Origin: Escherichia phage vB_EcoM_HZ_ZJUN4
Length of the DNA: 64,000 nucleotides
Sequence record: PP216085
Strand: one strand, 5' to 3'
The notes under the pieces were generated by a model, which saw only the letters and a list, made by a program, of their open reading frames with translations, did not search any database and was not told the origin of the DNA. Positions 29,647 to 46,056 of the stretch are shown piece by piece. Position 1 is the first letter of the stretch. Every line of letters begins with the position of its first letter. A program made the translations under genes and the position numbers.

Positions 29647-31074
29647 GTGGTAGAAATTATTCTTTCTCATCTCATATTTGATCAAGCTTATTTTTCAAAA
29701 GTTTGGCCATATATGGATTCAGAATATTTTGAAAGTGGTCCAGCTAAAAATACATTCAAATTAATTAAATCACATGTTAATGAGTATCATAGCGTTCCAT
29801 CTATTAATGCGTTAAATGTTGCATTAGAAAATAGTTCATTTACTGAAACAGAATATTCTGGTGTAAAAACACTTATTTCAAAACTAACCGATTCTCCGGA
29901 AGACCACAGCTGGTTAGTAAAAGAAACAGAAAAATATGTTCAGCAAAGGGCGATGTTTAACGCCACATCTAAAATAATTGAAATTCAAACCAATGCTGAG
30001 CTTCCTCCAGAAAAACGAAATAAGAAAATGCCGGATGTAGGTGCTATTCCTGACATCATGCGCCAAGCATTATCAATTTCATTTGATAGTTACGTTGGTC
30101 ATGATTGGATGGATGACTATGAAGCACGTTGGCTATCTTATATGAATAAAGCTCGTAAGGTTCCATTTAAACTCAAAATTCTAAATAAAATTACTAAAGG
30201 CGGAGCTGAGACTGGAACACTGAACGTTTTAATGGCTGGTGTTAACGTTGGTAAGTCATTAGGTCTATGTTCATTGGCAGCAGATTATTTGCAGCTCGGT
30301 CATAATGTTCTTTACATTTCAATGGAAATGGCAGAAGAAGTCTGTGCTAAACGTATTGACGCTAATATGCTTGACGTTTCTCTTGATGACATTGATGATG
30401 GGCATATTTCTTACGCTGAATATAAAGGAAAAATGGAAAAATGGCGTGAGAAATCTACTCTCGGTCGTTTAATCGTTAAACAGTATCCTACTGGTGGTGC
30501 AGACGCTAATACATTTCGTTCTCTTTTGAACGAATTGAAGCTCAAGAAGAATTTTGTTCCAACAATCATTATTGTTGACTATCTAGGTATTTGTAAATCT
30601 TGTCGCATCAGAGTTTACTCAGAAAATAGTTACACAACTGTTAAAGCTATCGCAGAGGAATTGCGTGCTCTGGCTGTTGAAACCGAAACTGTTCTTTGGA
30701 CTGCAGCACAGGTTGGTAAGCAGGCTTGGGATTCTTCTGATGTTAACATGAGCGATATTGCAGAATCCGCCGGTCTTCCAGCAACAGCCGATTTTATGCT
30801 TGCGGTCATTGAAACCGAGGAGTTAGCAGCTGCTGAACAACAACTCATTAAGCAAATCAAATCACGATATGGTGATAAGAATAAATGGAATAAGTTTTTG
30901 ATGGGTGTTCAAAAAGGAAATCAAAAATGGGTAGAAATTGAGCAAGATTCTACTCCAACCGAAGTGAACGAAGTAGCAGGTTCACAGCAGATTCAGGCTG
31001 AGCAGAATCGCTATCAAAGAAACGAATCTACTCGAGCCCAGTTAGATGCTTTGGCAAATGAATTAAAATTTTAG
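29647..31074 (+). CDS. 41: replicative DNA helicase gp41 (DnaB-like)
   Basis: 475 aa, GTG start; Walker A GVNVGKS; matches recalled T4 gp41. Confidence 0.95.
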   Translation: MVEIILSHLIFDQAYFSKVWPYMDSEYFESGPAKNTFKLIKSHVNEYHSVPSINALNVALENSSFTETEYSGVKTLISKLTDSPEDHSWLVKETEKYVQQRAMFNATSKIIEIQTNAELPPEKRNKKMPDVGAIPDIMRQALSISFDSYVGHDWMDDYEARWLSYMNKARKVPFKLKILNKITKGGAETGTLNVLMAGVNVGKSLGLCSLAADYLQLGHNVLYISMEMAEEVCAKRIDANMLDVSLDDIDDGHISYAEYKGKMEKWREKSTLGRLIVKQYPTGGADANTFRSLLNELKLKKNFVPTIIIVDYLGICKSCRIRVYSENSYTTVKAIAEELRALAVETETVLWTAAQVGKQAWDSSDVNMSDIAESAGLPATADFMLAVIETEELAAAEQQLIKQIKSRYGDKNKWNKFLMGVQKGNQKWVEIEQDSTPTEVNEVAGSQQIQAEQNRYQRNESTRAQLDALANELKF

Positions 31075-31103
31075 TTTACAAGCTGACAGGACTATGGTAT
31101 AGT
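31074..31103 (+). promoter_or_regulatory. T4-type early promoter
   Basis: GTTTACAAG...TATGGTATAGT. Confidence 0.6.
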
Positions 31104-31132
31104 AGTCTTGTTGGTTAAATGAGGAGATTGTT

Positions 31133-31315
31133 ATGGAATTGGTAAAGGTAGTTTTTATGGGGTGGTTTAAGAATGAAAGCATGTTTACTAAAGAAATCAC
31201 AATGATGAAAGACGACGTTCAATGGGCTACTACTCAATATGCTGAAGTTAATAAAGCATTAGTTAAAGCTTTCATTGATGACAAGAAAGTATGCGAAGTG
31301 GATTGCCGAGGATAA
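31133..31315 (+). CDS. dmd: Dmd, antitoxin against host RnlA/LsoA toxins
   Basis: 60 aa MELVKVVFMGWFKNESMFTKEITMMKDDVQW... between 41 and 61; matches recalled T4 Dmd. Confidence 0.7.
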   Translation: MELVKVVFMGWFKNESMFTKEITMMKDDVQWATTQYAEVNKALVKAFIDDKKVCEVDCRG

Positions 31316-31316
31316 T

Positions 31317-31571
31317 ATGCACATTGTTTTATTTAAACCTACTCCATACAGTGAATCATACTGTGTTAGGAAAAATACAAAATTTAAATTACCTATTTCA
31401 TCCGCATGGGAATTGGTATTAGATATTCCAGCAGAAGAAAGCCCTCCATTCGGTCGAGTGGAATTTATTGAGTTTGTTGTACGTCCTACGAAGCGACAGA
31501 TTCGCCAATGCAAAAGATACTTTCGTAAAATAGTCAAGTTAGAGAAACAGTTACTGATGCTAGTAAAATAG
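31317..31571 (+). CDS. hypothetical protein
   Basis: Track ORF 31275..31571 trimmed to ATG after GAGGATAAT; 84 aa. Confidence 0.5.
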   Translation: MHIVLFKPTPYSESYCVRKNTKFKLPISSAWELVLDIPAEESPPFGRVEFIEFVVRPTKRQIRQCKRYFRKIVKLEKQLLMLVK

Positions 31572-31573
31572 TA

Positions 31574-31603
31574 GTTTACAAGCTGATAGAGTTGTGTTAT
31601 AGT
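31574..31603 (+). promoter_or_regulatory. T4-type early promoter
   Basis: GTTTACAAG...TGTTATAGT. Confidence 0.55.
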
Positions 31604-31634
31604 AATTCTATCAGCTAATCGCGGAGAAAAGAAA

Positions 31635-31889
31635 ATGATGCTAGTTAATAGAGAATATCAGTTTAAATCAGAAGAAGATTTGGAAAAATTCGCAAGTGGT
31701 TGTGAACTGAATAGACGCACAGCTAAAGTCATAGGATTAAAACCCTTTACAGTTCTAGATTGTGAAGTTTCTAAATTCCGCAGAGGGTGTTCTATTAGCG
31801 GTCATGCTCTGGTTGATGGGAACACATTTTTCTTTGTTTTTAGCGTCAGAGAACTTTTATTGATTAACGAACTTGAGGAAATAAAATAG
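31635..31889 (+). CDS. hypothetical protein
   Basis: 84 aa, RBS GGAGAAAAGAAA. Confidence 0.5.
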   Translation: MMLVNREYQFKSEEDLEKFASGCELNRRTAKVIGLKPFTVLDCEVSKFRRGCSISGHALVDGNTFFFVFSVRELLLINELEEIK

Positions 31890-31919
31890 TTTACTTTTGT
31901 TGGAAATTGAGATACTATA
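31887..31919 (+). promoter_or_regulatory. T4-type early promoter
   Basis: GTTTACTTT...GATACTATAT. Confidence 0.45.
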
Positions 31920-31946
31920 TAAACATAAACTACTGAGGAGATTATC

Positions 31947-32240
31947 ATGAAAAAATTTGTTTTTGCTGCAATTTTTGCTTTGACTTCTTGTGCTGCTCAG
32001 CCTGCTATGGCGGGTTATGATAAAGATTTGTGCGAATGGTCTATGACTGCAGATCAGACTGAGGTTGAAACTCAAATTGAAGCGGATATTATGAATATCG
32101 TTGAGCGTGATCGTCCTGAAATGAAAGCTGAAGTACAAAAACAGCTTAAATCTGGTGGTGTAATGCAGTATAATTATGTTCTGTATTGCGATAAAAACTT
32201 CAATAATAAAAATATCATCGCTGAAGTGGTAGGTGAATAA
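31947..32240 (+). CDS. sp: probable Spackle (periplasmic lysozyme inhibitor / superinfection exclusion)
   Basis: 97 aa with signal peptide MKKFVFAAIFALTSCAAQPAMA; between 41 and 61; RBS GAGGAGATT. Confidence 0.65.
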   Translation: MKKFVFAAIFALTSCAAQPAMAGYDKDLCEWSMTADQTEVETQIEADIMNIVERDRPEMKAEVQKQLKSGGVMQYNYVLYCDKNFNNKNIIAEVVGE

Positions 32241-32851
32241 TGCTTTATCAAATGCACAAGTGCAAAGACACGTACAAATATAAAGGTGCCCAGTGTTATA
32301 TCATTAATCGTGAAAACGCAGGTCCAGGTCATTCGCATCAATCGCGGTTTGTATTCGTTAAAAACAACGAAATTATAGCAGTTGCTAATTACATGCTTGC
32401 GACTAGTGATGTTAATCCGGTGCCTTTCACATATTATAATCTAATGGACTTGGCGTACGATTATAATTGGTTTAATCATGATACTTTGGCTCATATTGAA
32501 GGTGTAGGATTTGATATCTCTTATTCTAGTTACTCGTTGTGTCCTATGAGCCGAGCTCATAAAGAGCCTGAATATTTTTCATTTCGTCGGCGTGTAGACT
32601 TTAAACGCAGCACAGAGTATGTCGGTGGAATCTTTGTTAAAGATAATCGAATTACTCGCATTATTTATCCTTTGGGCTGTGGTCAAAAAGATATTGATGT
32701 TGATTTAGACTTTACTGAAAACATCATTAATCATATTGCTTCTGTGTATTTTGATATTGATCACAAAATTGTAATATGTGGATATGAATTACCATCAGAA
32801 AAACAGTCTATTGATGACCAAATTTTTAATGCTTTTATGAATAGAGGTTAA
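32240..32851 (+). CDS. hypothetical protein
   Basis: 203 aa; start overlaps sp stop. Confidence 0.55.
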   Translation: MLYQMHKCKDTYKYKGAQCYIINRENAGPGHSHQSRFVFVKNNEIIAVANYMLATSDVNPVPFTYYNLMDLAYDYNWFNHDTLAHIEGVGFDISYSSYSLCPMSRAHKEPEYFSFRRRVDFKRSTEYVGGIFVKDNRITRIIYPLGCGQKDIDVDLDFTENIINHIASVYFDIDHKIVICGYELPSEKQSIDDQIFNAFMNRG

Positions 32852-32852
32852 T

Positions 32853-33017
32853 ATGAAAACGTTTAAAGAATTTATCAAAGAAGATATGGTCGCTGGAGAT
32901 TCAGGTGGTAATCCTGAAAATATCTCTACTGGAACAACGTCAGGCGCTGCAGTAAATAAAGGTCCTGAACAGATTCCTAAAAAGAAAAAAGAGGAATCTA
33001 AAGAAAAAGAAGAGTAA
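32853..33017 (+). CDS. small acidic/lysine-rich protein (54 aa)
   Basis: Not in ORF track; ATG after GAGGTTAAT; fills the gap before gene 61. Confidence 0.35.
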   Translation: MKTFKEFIKEDMVAGDSGGNPENISTGTTSGAAVNKGPEQIPKKKKEESKEKEE

Positions 33018-33020
33018 AAA

Positions 33021-34049
33021 ATGTCATCAATACCTTGGATTGATAATGAGTTTGCATATCGTGCGCTAGCTCATTTACCTAAATTCACACAAGTAAATAA
33101 TAGTTCAACTTTTAAATTGCGGTTTAGATGCCCTGTTTGTGGAGATTCAAAAACCGACCAAAATAAAGCCCGTGGATGGTATTACGGCGATAATAATGAA
33201 GGAAATATTCATTGTTATAACTGTAACTATCATGCACCAATCGGAATATATTTAAAGGAGTTTGAACCTGATTTATATCGTGAGTATATCTTTGAAATAA
33301 GAAAAGAAAAAGGTAAAAGTCGTCTAGTAGAAAAACCTAAAGAACTTCCTAAACAACCCGAGAAGAAAATAATTAAATCTCTTCCGTCATGCATTAGATT
33401 AGATAAACTGGCGGAAGACCATCCAATTATAAAATACGTAAAAGCTCGCTGTATTCCAAAGGATAAATGGAAATATCTTTGGTTTACAACCGAATGGCCT
33501 AAATTAGTTAATAGTATAGCACCAGGAACATATAAAAAGGAAATACCTGAGCCTCGTCTTGTTATTCCAATTTATAATGCTAATGGAAAAGCTGAGTCTT
33601 TTCAAGGACGTGCATTAAAGAAAGATGCTCCTCAAAAATATATCACCATCAAAGCTTATCCTGAGGCAACAAAAATCTATGGAGTTGAACGAGTTAAAGA
33701 TGGTGATGTATATGTTCTAGAAGGACCTATAGATTCACTTTTTATTGAAAATGGTATAGCTATTACGGGTGGTCAATTAGACCTAGAAATTGTTCCATTT
33801 AAAGATAGACGTGTATGGGTTTTAGATAATGAACCTCGTCACCCTGACACTATTAAACGAATGACTAAATTAGTTGATGCAGGAGAAAGGGTTATGTTTT
33901 GGGATAAATCTCCCTGGAAATCAAAAGATGTTAATGATATGATTAGAAAGGAAGGTGCAACCCCTGAACAAATTATGGAATATATGAAAAATAATATTGC
34001 CCAAGGGTTGATGGCTAAAATGCGGCTATCTAAATATGCTAAGATTTAA
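33021..34049 (+). CDS. 61: DNA primase gp61
   Basis: 342 aa; zinc ribbon CPVCGDS...CYNC; TOPRIM acidic residues. Confidence 0.92.
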   Translation: MSSIPWIDNEFAYRALAHLPKFTQVNNSSTFKLRFRCPVCGDSKTDQNKARGWYYGDNNEGNIHCYNCNYHAPIGIYLKEFEPDLYREYIFEIRKEKGKSRLVEKPKELPKQPEKKIIKSLPSCIRLDKLAEDHPIIKYVKARCIPKDKWKYLWFTTEWPKLVNSIAPGTYKKEIPEPRLVIPIYNANGKAESFQGRALKKDAPQKYITIKAYPEATKIYGVERVKDGDVYVLEGPIDSLFIENGIAITGGQLDLEIVPFKDRRVWVLDNEPRHPDTIKRMTKLVDAGERVMFWDKSPWKSKDVNDMIRKEGATPEQIMEYMKNNIAQGLMAKMRLSKYAKI

Positions 34050-34246
34050 ATTAACCCAACCAAAGCAAATGCTAAATCTACGAATGTATCAAGAGTAATT
34101 ACTGGAATACTAACGCCATGAGCAATAGCAACTGGCGATAAAACAAAATTCCAAAGTAAAATTCCTATCATAGCAGAAATAGTAAAAGCTATACGTTTTT
34201 TATTACCTTTGATGGCATTAACAAGTGCCATTAATTTTTGTACCAT
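34046..34246 (-). CDS. small membrane protein, antisense to flanking early genes
   Basis: 66 aa hydrophobic; strong RBS AAAGGAGG 7 nt upstream of ATG on - strand; convergent with gene 61. Confidence 0.45.
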   Translation of the reverse strand: MVQKLMALVNAIKGNKKRIAFTISAMIGILLWNFVLSPVAIAHGVSIPVITLDTFVDLAFALVGLI

Positions 34247-34295
34247 GCGTCGTCCTCCTTTAAATTAAATATTTATCGCAAATTTTACAAAATTT

Positions 34296-34325
34296 GTTTA
34301 CTTTCTCAGCTTGTTGTGGTATTAT
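34296..34325 (+). promoter_or_regulatory. T4-type early promoter
   Basis: GTTTACTTT...TGTGGTATTAT. Confidence 0.6.
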
Positions 34326-34350
34326 AAAATAAACTGCTGAGGATAATATA

Positions 34351-35690
<1,340 letters not shown>

Positions 35691-44868: not shown

Positions 44869-45084
44869 ATGAAACGTAAAACTGTTCAGAATTGCACTAA
44901 TGACGAATTTGAAGATGTATTATTCGATCCAGATTTGGTAGTAGTTCAAAAAGAACATACCGTTAAGTTTACTCACTTGACTTCGGTTTATGTGTATGAA
45001 AAGGTTGGTGATAAACAGCCAATTTACGGTGTATTTCGTGAAATTACTGAAGATGGCACAACTTACTGGAAGGAAATTTATTAA
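44869..45084 (+). CDS. hypothetical protein
   Basis: 71 aa, RBS GAGGAAATTG. Confidence 0.5.
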
Positions 45085-45503
45085 TGGCTATTAAATTTGA
45101 AGTTAATAAATGGTATCAATTTAAAAATAAACAAGCTCAAGAAAATTTTATTAAAGACCATACTGATAACGGAATCTATGCACGACGTTTAGGTATGGAA
45201 CCTTTTAAAATTTTAGATGCTGATTATCTTGGGCGTCCTACTAAAATTGTGACATCCACAGGTGTACTCAAACGTTGTGCCGGCGCTGATATCCTTGACG
45301 AAAACTTTATCTGGCTCTCTACTAACGAAGCTGGGTTCTTTGATGAAGTGGAAAATCCATATCAGGCAGCTGGAGAGCAAGAGCAGGAAGAGCAAGAACA
45401 AATAGAAGATTTCACAGAATTCCCGGTAATGAAAGTTACTATTGAAAATAATGAGCAGGCATGGTCCTTGTATCAGATGTTGAAAGCACACTTTAAGGAA
45501 TAA
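45084..45503 (+). CDS. hypothetical protein (GoF-like by position)
   Basis: 139 aa with acidic stretch EQEQEEQEQ. Confidence 0.45.
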
Positions 45504-45684: not shown

Positions 45685-46056
45685 ATGTTTAAAATTGGTA
45701 AGAAATATCGCATTCGTGAAGGTGAAGAACAGAAATATCTACTTTCTGCTAGTAATAGGAATAGTTCTATTAATGCTGTAATATTGACTAGTGAATTTAT
45801 CGTTGAAGATATGAAAGGTCATAATGTTACAATGATTAGTACAGCATCTAGAAATGACGGAAAAATTCTTCATAGTTGTCAGAGTAGTGTTCTAATTTAT
45901 GATGAAGAATTTGACTTCTTCAAAGAAGTTTCCGAAGATTTTGATTTTGAATGCACTATCACTATGAAATCTGGCGACCCTCTTTCTTTTACAGTTAAAG
46001 ATGAAAGAAGCCGCTTGAGAATTATTAGTCTCCTTCAAGCCATTAAATTTGAGTGA
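45685..46056 (+). CDS. hypothetical protein
   Basis: Track ORF, 123 aa. Confidence 0.5.
   Translation: MFKIGKKYRIREGEEQKYLLSASNRNSSINAVILTSEFIVEDMKGHNVTMISTASRNDGKILHSCQSSVLIYDEEFDFFKEVSEDFDFECTITMKSGDPLSFTVKDERSRLRIISLLQAIKFE

Follow-up and report, generated by a model that had tools for sequence, protein, structure and literature searches.

A T4-like phage region between genes 41 and 61 that resembles the T4 anti-toxin–antitoxin island and carries an additional GoF-like cassette

Do the small genes that accompany a known antitoxin gene in a phage genome share its role in countering host defence? The question is raised by positions 31133-32851 of the 64,000-nucleotide stretch of DNA analysed here (the window), where the original prediction recognized the antitoxin Dmd and proposed its neighbours, the ORFs at 31317, 31635, 32240 and 32853, as candidates for further anti-defence functions. 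The window is a Tequatrovirus (T4-like) genome: its DNA is 93-96.5% identical to that of many Tequatrovirus genomes, one of which is annotated with antitoxin Dmd, protein spackle and anti-DarT factor A. With high confidence, we regard 31133-32851 as the orthologue of the early accessory region between genes 41 and 61 of T4, which has been described as an anti-toxin–antitoxin island. The predicted ORFs are all present at their positions between the helicase and primase genes, and the features of the locus are as follows.

29647-31074, plus strand: gene 41, replicative helicase, left border of the island (473/475 identical to T4 gp41)
31133-31315, plus strand: dmd, putative antitoxin-like inhibitor of the RnlA/LsoA RNase toxins (60/60 identical to T4 Dmd)
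31317-31571, plus strand: tifA (T4 gene 61.4), predicted inhibitor of the ToxN endoribonuclease (65/80 identical to T4 TifA)
31635-31889, plus strand: mini-GoF, 84 aa, homologue of the GoF N-terminal domain (phrog_2980; HHalign to GoF)
31947-32240, plus strand: sp (Spackle), 97 aa, probable secreted inhibitor of the gp5 tail lysozyme (93/97 identical to T4 Sp)
32240-32851, plus strand: adfA (T4 gene 61.2), putative anti-DarT factor A (196/208 identical to T4 gp61.2)
32853-33017, plus strand: 61.1, 54 aa (52/54 identical to T4 gp61.1)
33021-34049, plus strand: gene 61, primase, right border of the island (336/342 identical to T4 gp61)

The flanking genes, the gene order and the early promoters upstream of dmd and sp are the same as in the T4 'anti-TA island' (Srikant, Guegler and Laub 2022, PMC9391042), and the encoded proteins are 81-100% identical. 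The window differs from T4 in a rare tifA allele with a divergent N-terminal patch, in a deletion of 5 codons near the 3′ end of adfA (close to the C-terminus of the protein) and in an extra cassette of approximately 340 bp (about 31549-31888), absent from T4, which lies between tifA and the sp promoter and comprises a promoter, a hairpin and an 84-aa ORF. Matches to the Dmd, DUF7279, T4_Spackle and AdfA Pfam families all exceeded their cut-offs. PADLOC and NCBIfam gave no match for TifA, mini-GoF, AdfA or 61.1, and an Rfam scan of 30800-34600 at E values up to 1 found no RNA family. Two minus-strand ORFs, of 92 aa (31259-31537) and 93 aa (31857-2138), were taken as spurious because they are antisense to well-supported genes.

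The identification of the 60-aa ORF as Dmd is borne out by Pfam family PF17587 (E 1.6e-46; 156.9 bits against a cut-off of 27) and PDB chain 5hy3_B (E 1.8e-37). Dmd neutralizes the toxins RnlA and LsoA (PMC9391042), and by orthology the protein encoded here would bind and block both of these RNases. The ORF at 31317, originally listed as uncharacterized, is TifA (gp61.4), with a match to DUF7279 at 73.3 bits against a cut-off of 24.5. It is co-operonic with dmd, as the dmd stop codon ends at 31315, the tifA start codon follows after a 1-nt spacer and no promoter lies between them. T4 61.4 has been identified as the ToxN inhibitor TifA (PMC9391042, PMC10853763); its orthologue in the window would be expected to bind ToxN together with RNA, trapping the toxin in an inactive ribonucleoprotein.

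The tifA allele itself is rare, being 100% identical only in phage W143, while approximately 470 records stand at 80-90%. It carries a 4-residue insertion, divergent residues 12-30 and an alternative C-terminus, LLMLVK. The allele is also mosaic: a patch at 31350-31409 (71% identity, with a 12-nt indel) is bordered on both sides by sequence that matches phage G4498 at 99.7-100%. The central basic cluster RPTKRQIRQCKRYFRK is conserved, and K59, R60 and R63 correspond to the RNA-binding residues K55, R56 and R59 of RB69 TifA. F45 corresponds to T4 F41, the weaker variant at T4 position 41, and residues 12-30 differ from the alleles tested in published work. A single copy of T4 tifA fails to overcome plasmid-borne toxIN (PMC9391042).

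Downstream of the cassette, the secreted 97-aa Spackle-like protein of the original prediction was also confirmed, by Pfam family PF25676 (E 7.7e-45; 151.9 bits) and by a PDB match to 6x6o; the crystallized mature chain, 7cn6, begins at residue 23, as expected if a signal peptide is removed. In superinfection exclusion, Spackle inhibits the gp5 tail lysozyme of superinfecting T-even phages (PMC7677548), and by orthology the protein encoded here would be exported to the periplasm and inhibit the tail lysozyme of later-arriving T-even phages. The target of Spackle is competing phages, not host defence.

The 203-aa protein encoded next is not, as had been proposed, uncharacterized: it is AdfA, matching PF23813 over residues 1-203 (E 2.1e-129; 429.6 bits against a cut-off of 27), and its start codon overlaps the sp stop codon. 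The 61.2 protein of T4 and RB69 is AdfA, which neutralizes DarT1 (PMC11257639), a finding that the same paper cites as also due to LeRoux 2022, and the orthologue may likewise bind the DNA ADP-ribosyltransferase DarT1. His165 aligns with R164 of RB69, a position at which histidine marks the DarT1-neutralizing allele (PMC11257639). However, deletion of adfA from T4 produced no DarTG1 phenotype (PMC11257639), so an AdfA with His165 is no guarantee of activity. The adfA sequence is at least 99% identical in only 2 of 486 records.

Among the four ORFs named as anti-defence candidates, two, 31317 (TifA) and 32240 (AdfA), would be such genes, going by published experiments on their orthologues. The hypothesis of counter-defence genes around dmd is sound but already published: Srikant et al. 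(2022, eLife, PMC9391042) called the region the "anti-TA island" and put forward the rest of its genes as candidate anti-toxins, so the interpretation given by the original prediction is not new. The sole unstudied addition to the island is the cassette encoding the 84-residue GoF-like protein.

How is such a cassette accommodated among genes expressed early? A pattern scan for GTTTAC-N17-TAxxxT identified three early-type promoters in the island.

31064-31127, plus strand: dmd-tifA promoter region, copy 1 of a 64-nt repeat (promoter scan, 10/12)
31564-31627, plus strand: left end of the inserted cassette, copy 2 of the repeat (promoter scan and repeat search)
31890-31918, plus strand: early-type promoter TTTACT-N17-TACTAT of sp-adfA-61.1-61 (pattern scan)

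The proposal that the small early genes have promoters of their own thus applies to three units, dmd-tifA, ORF 31635 and sp-adfA-61.1-61, but not to tifA, adfA or 61.1, each of which begins 0-3 nt from the preceding gene. These three promoters would drive synthesis of the small proteins soon after infection. A terminator scan within the island found no intrinsic terminator above chance.

The first two promoters have the same form. At 31075-31103, TTTACA-N17-TATAGT, with TG preceding the −10 element, serves dmd-tifA, and is accompanied by a hairpin (arms 31081-31095 and 31102-31116; dG −18.6 kcal/mol, z −4.35) that begins 6 nt past the gene 41 stop codon. At 31575-31603, TTTACA-N17-TATAGT serves ORF 31635, and the accompanying hairpin (arms 31581-31594 and 31603-31616; dG −18.0 kcal/mol, z −4.47) begins 9 nt past the tifA stop codon. 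Both belong to a 64-nt direct repeat (D1), the copies of which are 72% identical at a spacing of 500 nt and share the exact 15-nt sequence TAGTTTACAAGCTGA at 31072 and 31572, as read directly. We considered whether the repeat is merely the early-promoter consensus. This was partly rejected, as identity between the two promoters is 70% and early-promoter pairs in the window average 45% (sd 9%), yet they rank only 4th of 190 pairs and three pairs equal or exceed them. The sp promoter has no hairpin (fold z −0.04) and forms the right border of the cassette, where homology to T4 resumes in the alignment; a promoter downstream of tifA has been reported in T4 (PMC9391042).

This arrangement resembles the promoter-early stem-loop (PeSL) elements, mobile regulatory cassettes of T4-type phages (Arbiol 2010, PMC2839356; Comeau 2014, PMC4122927). 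As in those elements, an early promoter (TTTACA-N17-TATAGT) and a strong stem-loop precede an accessory ORF, and the insertion lies at a promoter boundary in a hyperplastic region, with a similar composite 500 nt upstream. The likeness is not complete. TATAGT departs at one position from the PeSL −10 consensus TAYWAT (PST/T4), and the stem differs in sequence from the published AGNA-loop-TCNT and encloses the −10 element.

Comparison with other phages demonstrates that the region is a hyperplastic slot system: the neighbours stay fixed, while cassettes that carry promoters are gained and lost between them. T4 has nothing in the slot between tifA and sp; Shfl2, like this phage, has mini-GoF there, GEP001 has mini-GoF and a 59-aa ORF, and RB69 has imm.1 and imm. 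Phage W143 lacks adfA. Spackle and the RB69 imm gene act in phage-versus-phage conflict, so the island is not purely an anti-defence locus. This mixture of functions within one slot system favours a broader view, that the interval from gene 41 to gene 61 is just one of the generic hyperplastic regions of T4-type genomes, which tolerate insertions and for that reason collect early genes that are non-essential and functionally unrelated. The description of PeSL-type promoter cassettes as a shuffling mechanism common to the hyperplastic regions of T4-type phages (PMC4122927) favours the same view. On that view, which we consider doubtful though deserving of attention, co-localization with dmd would be uninformative and, with the same doubt, neither mini-GoF nor 61.1 would have a role in counter-defence.

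The evidence from 61.1 leans the same way. As well as matching phrog_1823, the protein matches the C-terminal end of phrog_2086, and in alignments its core is the C-terminal module of longer proteins, of 92 aa in RB69 and 155 aa in a metagenomic sequence, so that it resembles a truncated module. In both phages compared (RB69 and one metagenomic contig), the longer protein is encoded just upstream of the primase gene, which points to primase as much as to defence. Set against the generic account are dmd, tifA and adfA, three independent anti-toxin genes within 1.7 kb, a concentration that would probably exceed what a random sample of early genes gives. A second argument against it is the distribution of mini-GoF, which lies inside the 41-61 island in all four other contexts examined, with shifting positions, and was retained there across three further lineages while its slot changed. 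In phage SP18, for example, the gene directly follows gene 41.

Is ORF 31635 a gene at all? It has no Pfam match, accounts for only about six clusters of proteins even in very large databases and yields a low-confidence structure model, all of which would suit a chance ORF or a decaying remnant. We consider this extremely improbable, as the selection analysis effectively refutes it: mini-GoF is under purifying selection, with dN/dS of 0.05-0.17 and synonymous sites saturated between lineages. Alignment of the orthologues, which are 56-81% identical, needs only one single-residue indel and shows 37 invariant positions; the ORF is preceded by an early promoter of its own and by a GGAG ribosome-binding site. 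Lastly, its profile homology to GoF is significant.

That homology was seen at several levels. Mini-GoF matches phrog_2980 (E 3.2e-20), the entire profile of which is also matched by residues 11-91 of the GoF encoded in the window. BLASTP aligned the two proteins at 37% identity over 41 aa (E 2e-8), and HHalign paired mini-GoF residues 3-42 with GoF residues 6-45 (97% probability, E 8.4e-11). Nothing in mini-GoF aligns with GoF residues 92-139; mini-GoF ends at residue 84 and has no counterpart of that segment, and is therefore a single-domain relative rather than a GoF orthologue. The true goF gene lies at 45084-45503. Within the GoF/MotB.1/Frd.2 family of the Tevenvirinae (Kim et al. 2025, PMC12152347), GoF and mini-GoF are alike in being early genes, but GoF has 139-141 aa against 84 and includes an acidic linker and a C-terminal domain that mini-GoF lacks, and its gene lies in the motB-39 region rather than in the 41-61 island. 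Nothing in the 41-61 region of T4 aligns to the mini-GoF ORF. A 123-aa ORF at 45685 is a GoF paralogue by PHROG, although HHalign detected no relationship between it and mini-GoF (probability 0.2%).

A relative of GoF located 0.5 kb downstream of gene 41 (or immediately after it, as in SP18) might act on the expression of its own phage. The mutant GoF(D25Y) stabilizes gene 41 mRNA (PMC12152347), mini-GoF is homologous to the GoF N-terminal domain, and the stop codons of gene 41 and tifA each have a strong hairpin downstream, so that mini-GoF could stabilize or process the gene 41 or dmd-tifA transcripts via these hairpins. It would then be a GoF paralogue rather than a counter-defence factor. 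We think it unlikely, though not negligibly so, that mini-GoF is such a regulator. The mRNA reporter assay showed little effect of wild-type GoF (PMC12152347). Mini-GoF is dispensable for the lineage, being present in 83 phage records compared with 699 for tifA and 733 for goF, a pattern more in keeping with an accessory gene than with a core regulator. Furthermore, C23, C43, C52 and H57 are invariant in mini-GoF, and this Cys3-His set is missing from GoF.

GoF belongs to a family with a predicted LSm-like fold (PMC12152347), and we defined an LSm/SH3-like fold by a five-stranded bent antiparallel beta-sheet. The AlphaFold2 model of mini-GoF, built from a six-sequence alignment, has two helices, three strands and a C-terminal helix, and at a pLDDT of 61.4 gives no fold assignment. 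A Foldseek search of viral models returned only its own homologue, and a search of the PDB returned nothing under E 0.25, the best partial matches (above that value) being the small beta-barrel domains of EF-P and eIF5A. At the sequence level, a word-index search found 5 clusters, and an exhaustive HMMER profile search of 1.84 billion representatives yielded one true homologue. The eight other HMMER matches were long proteins with multiple matching stretches; the three inspected were eukaryotic C2H2 zinc fingers that match 'KPF.C..C', and were attributed to chance. Against PDB sequences, the profile matched nothing but a zinc finger (E 0.91).

What mini-GoF does can be put forward only tentatively. 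With low confidence, we propose a small factor that binds RNA and influences the fate of mRNA, possibly protecting phage transcripts against a host RNase; the two grounds for this guess are family membership and constant residence beside two anti-RNase genes. The more specific reading, that mini-GoF is a fourth anti-toxin gene, most plausibly for a protein that binds RNA and either protects the phage's transcripts from a host RNase toxin or titrates that toxin, is in our estimation improbable. If mini-GoF did prove to be an anti-defence gene, it would provide the first function for a GoF-type LSm-like domain and would support residence in the island as a search rule for new anti-toxin genes.

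The main value of our analysis lies in correct annotation. In most deposited Tequatrovirus records tifA and adfA are still 'hypothetical', and the island gene labelled 'goF mRNA metabolism modulator' is a single-domain paralogue, not goF. The variation of the island among close relatives, in its cassette slots, in whether adfA is present and in a tifA allele that is mosaic, could aid genome-based prediction of host range for therapeutic T4-like phages. Anti-CRISPR and anti-restriction islands are likewise clusters of small early genes directed against different host systems, with content that varies among relatives; the targets here are the toxins of toxin-antitoxin systems, and a superinfection-exclusion gene is included. 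Across the three genera or lineages examined, mini-GoF adjoined the anti-RNase genes dmd and tifA.

The sequence features of the early region between helicase gene 41 and primase gene 61, dubbed the ‘anti-TA island’ in T4, are real, and their interpretation as counter-defence functions is sound and has been published before. Over the 2.1 kb around the island, identity to many Tequatrovirus (T4-like) genomes is 93–96.5 %, with matches in 641 phage records, and the gene order uvsX, 40, 41, island, primase 61, dam, 56 is the T4 map reversed. Composition is uniform, and GC skew is positive on the + strand, which bears every supported gene. All of the ORFs in the original prediction were recovered in place, as follows.

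31133-31315, + strand: Dmd, 60/60 residues identical to T4 Dmd (Pfam PF17587, E 1.6e-46; PDB 5hy3_B)
31317-31571, + strand: TifA (gp61.4), 65/80 identical to T4 gp61.4 (Pfam DUF7279, above cut-off)
31635-31889, + strand: mini-GoF, 84 aa, without counterpart in the T4 41-61 region
31947-32240, + strand: Sp (Spackle), 93/97 identical to T4 Sp (Pfam T4_Spackle; PDB 6x6o and 7cn6, the mature chain of the latter beginning at residue 23)
32240-32851, + strand: AdfA (gp61.2), 196/208 identical to T4 gp61.2 (Pfam ‘AdfA, anti-DarT factor A’, E 2.1e-129)
32853-33017, + strand: gp61.1, 52/54 identical to T4 gp61.1 (phrog_1823)

For Dmd, TifA, AdfA and Sp, we infer the function in this phage by orthology. 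[quoted passage not shown] 2022, PMC9391042). TifA binds both ToxN and RNA, trapping the toxin in a ribonucleoprotein (Guegler et al. 2023, PMC10853763), AdfA with His at RB69 position 164 neutralizes DarT1 (PMC11257639), and Spackle targets the gp5 lysozyme domain of superinfecting phages (PMC7677548). The proposal that the neighbours of dmd are anti-defence candidates is thus borne out by published orthologues for two of the four ORFs named, TifA against ToxN and AdfA against DarT1, and had already been published as a concept; ORF 31317 and the 203-aa ORF 32240 were wrongly called uncharacterized, as their orthologues TifA and AdfA have been studied. The sole unstudied element of the island is the mini-GoF cassette.

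The small genes had also been credited with promoters of their own. Three early-type promoters do exist: TTTACA-N17-TATAGT with an upstream TG at 31075-31103 and 31575-31603, the two top promoter-scan matches of the region, and TTTACT-N17-TACTAT at 31890-31918, from a pattern scan. The early-type pattern has 20 matches in the 64-kb window, every one on the + strand. Because tifA, adfA and 61.1 lie 0–3 nt from the preceding gene, and the scan of the region for early-type promoters gave none of their own, the arrangement is one of three transcription units rather than one per gene.

The tifA allele is unusual: an identical protein occurs in phage W143 only, and about 470 records are 80–90 % identical. 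Compared with phage G4498, the dmd flank is 100 % and the downstream cassette flank 99.7 % identical in DNA, versus 93 % for tifA itself. A 60-nt patch (31350-31409) has 71 % identity and a 12-nt insertion; outside it the alleles differ at eleven nucleotides but in just two amino acids. This looks like the recombinational import of a diverged allele at an arms-race gene. In TifA, K55/R56/R59 (RB69 numbering) are required and position 41 tunes potency; AlphaFold models place the N-terminal β-sheet region, where the patch falls, toward ToxN (PMC10853763). Here the basic RNA-binding cluster is kept (K59/R60/R63) and Phe, the weaker variant, is retained at T4 position 41; the patch could possibly alter toxin specificity. 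AdfA has His165 aligned with RB69 R164 and a five-residue deletion (PKVNV) near its C-terminus, and only 2 of 486 records hold a protein at least 99 % identical.

The 84-aa protein of the extra cassette carries the PHROG label ‘goF mRNA metabolism modulator’ (phrog_2980, E 3.2e-20), but it is not goF itself, the true gene lying at 45084-45503. BLASTP aligns it with T4 GoF (37 % identity over 41 residues, E 2e-8), profile–profile comparison matches residues 3-42 to the GoF family (97 % probability, E 8.4e-11), and all 72 positions of the phrog_2980 profile are covered by GoF residues 11-91; together these matches identify mini-GoF as the N-terminal domain of GoF in stand-alone form. That domain has a predicted LSm-like fold, and its D25Y substitution stabilizes gene 41 mRNA (Kim et al. 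2025, PMC12152347). Neither the linker nor the C-terminal domain of GoF is present in mini-GoF. Its invariant C23, C43, C52 and H57 are absent from GoF and suggest a possible zinc site. Another GoF paralogue (phrog_622, E 8.6e-30) is encoded by a 123-aa ORF on the + strand (45685-46056) that lies between 39.2 and gene 39, which brings the GoF-family genes in the window to three; in this interval T4 has the 65-aa gene 39.1.

Judged by its sequence conservation mini-GoF is a real gene, with dN/dS of 0.05–0.17 against metagenomic orthologues at saturated synonymous sites. It is accessory, occurring in 83 phage records versus 699 for tifA and 733 for goF. Its AlphaFold model is of low confidence (pLDDT 61.4) and gave no significant Foldseek match; from exhaustive sequence searches came very few homologues, along with zinc-finger matches that were rejected as spurious. 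As a best guess, this small protein binds RNA and acts on the fate of mRNA; that it is a new counter-defence factor seems rather unlikely.

Similarity to T4 breaks off at about 31548, past GAGAAACAGTT in the final codons of tifA, and homology restarts exactly at GTTTAC of the sp promoter (31889); between these two points lie ~340 nt here versus ~36 nt in T4. With the insert, TifA gains an alternative C-terminus (LLMLVK), and the phage an early promoter and the 84-aa ORF with a GGAG ribosome-binding site. The promoter region of the insert (31564-31627) repeats that of dmd (31064-31127), exactly 500 nt upstream, in direct orientation and with 72 % identity, and this promoter pair ranks fourth of the 190 early-type pairs in the window (70 % identity versus a mean of 45 %, sd 9 %). 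Each copy folds into a strong hairpin, the two being in the same register and beginning 6 nt past the gene 41 stop (dG -18.6 kcal/mol, z -4.35) and 9 nt past the tifA stop (-18.0 kcal/mol, z -4.47); the sp promoter has no comparable hairpin (fold z -0.04). In T4-type hyperplastic regions, promoter-early stem-loop (PeSL) cassettes are proposed to shuffle accessory genes (PMC4122927). Both promoter–hairpin composites resemble these and may belong to them, but depart from the published consensus in stem and -10 sequence. The two copies have in common an exact 15-nt direct repeat, TAGTTTACAAGCTGA (31072-31086 and 31572-31586), which brackets dmd-tifA as a 500-nt unit. Since T4 defeats toxIN through dmd-tifA amplifications that formed between 6–10 bp microhomologies (PMC9391042), this phage may be pre-disposed to such amplification, perhaps more readily than T4.

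Mini-GoF is again an island gene in each of the other contexts examined, though its slot differs: Gaprivervirus SP18 has it immediately behind gene 41, and two metagenomic contig types have it immediately upstream of tifA. The tifA-sp slot is empty in T4, and holds mini-GoF here and in Shfl2, mini-GoF plus a 59-aa ORF in GEP001, and imm.1 plus imm in RB69. Shfl2 and GEP001 carry a 118-aa ORF between adfA and 61.1, and W143 lacks adfA. In RB69 (92 aa) and on a metagenomic contig (155 aa), the protein encoded immediately upstream of the primase is longer and has the 61.1 core as its C-terminal module; 61.1 would not be among our stronger anti-defence candidates. Downstream of sp, the small SP18 protein gp034 (L005:4877-5095) has a TifA-like motif, RPTKRQIRK, by which the tifA homologue of that genus may occupy a different island slot. 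Two metagenomic T4-like contigs, which appear to lack dmd, hold another uncharacterized island resident between gene 41 and mini-GoF, a 253-aa ORF (L011:3179-3940 and L012:3179-3940) with no Pfam match.

Beyond primase 61, the stop codon of a 186-aa ORF (34351-34911, + strand) overlaps the start codon of dam (34911-35690). It has an invariant D72...E85-x-K87 nuclease motif and weak matches to DpnII (Pfam, E 0.002, below cut-off) and a PADLOC type II restriction enzyme model (E 3.6e-5); the best PDB matches of its AlphaFold model (pLDDT 79.7) are mostly PD-(D/E)xK nucleases, at low TM-scores (0.38–0.44). The ORF is present in T2 and 163 phage records, with no function annotated among those listed, and in T4 a 541-bp deletion (window 34283-34823) leaves only codons 159-186. 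This ORF possibly encodes a restriction-enzyme-like protein that partners the phage's Dam methylase. Antisense to its neighbours and overlapping the end of primase 61 is a 66-aa hydrophobic ORF (34046-34246, - strand; phrog_2024, E 1.9e-30). It has no annotation in T4; RB69 ORF029w, an opposite-strand CDS beside gene 61, is of similar size, and a CDS is annotated at its place in P8, G4498 and W143.
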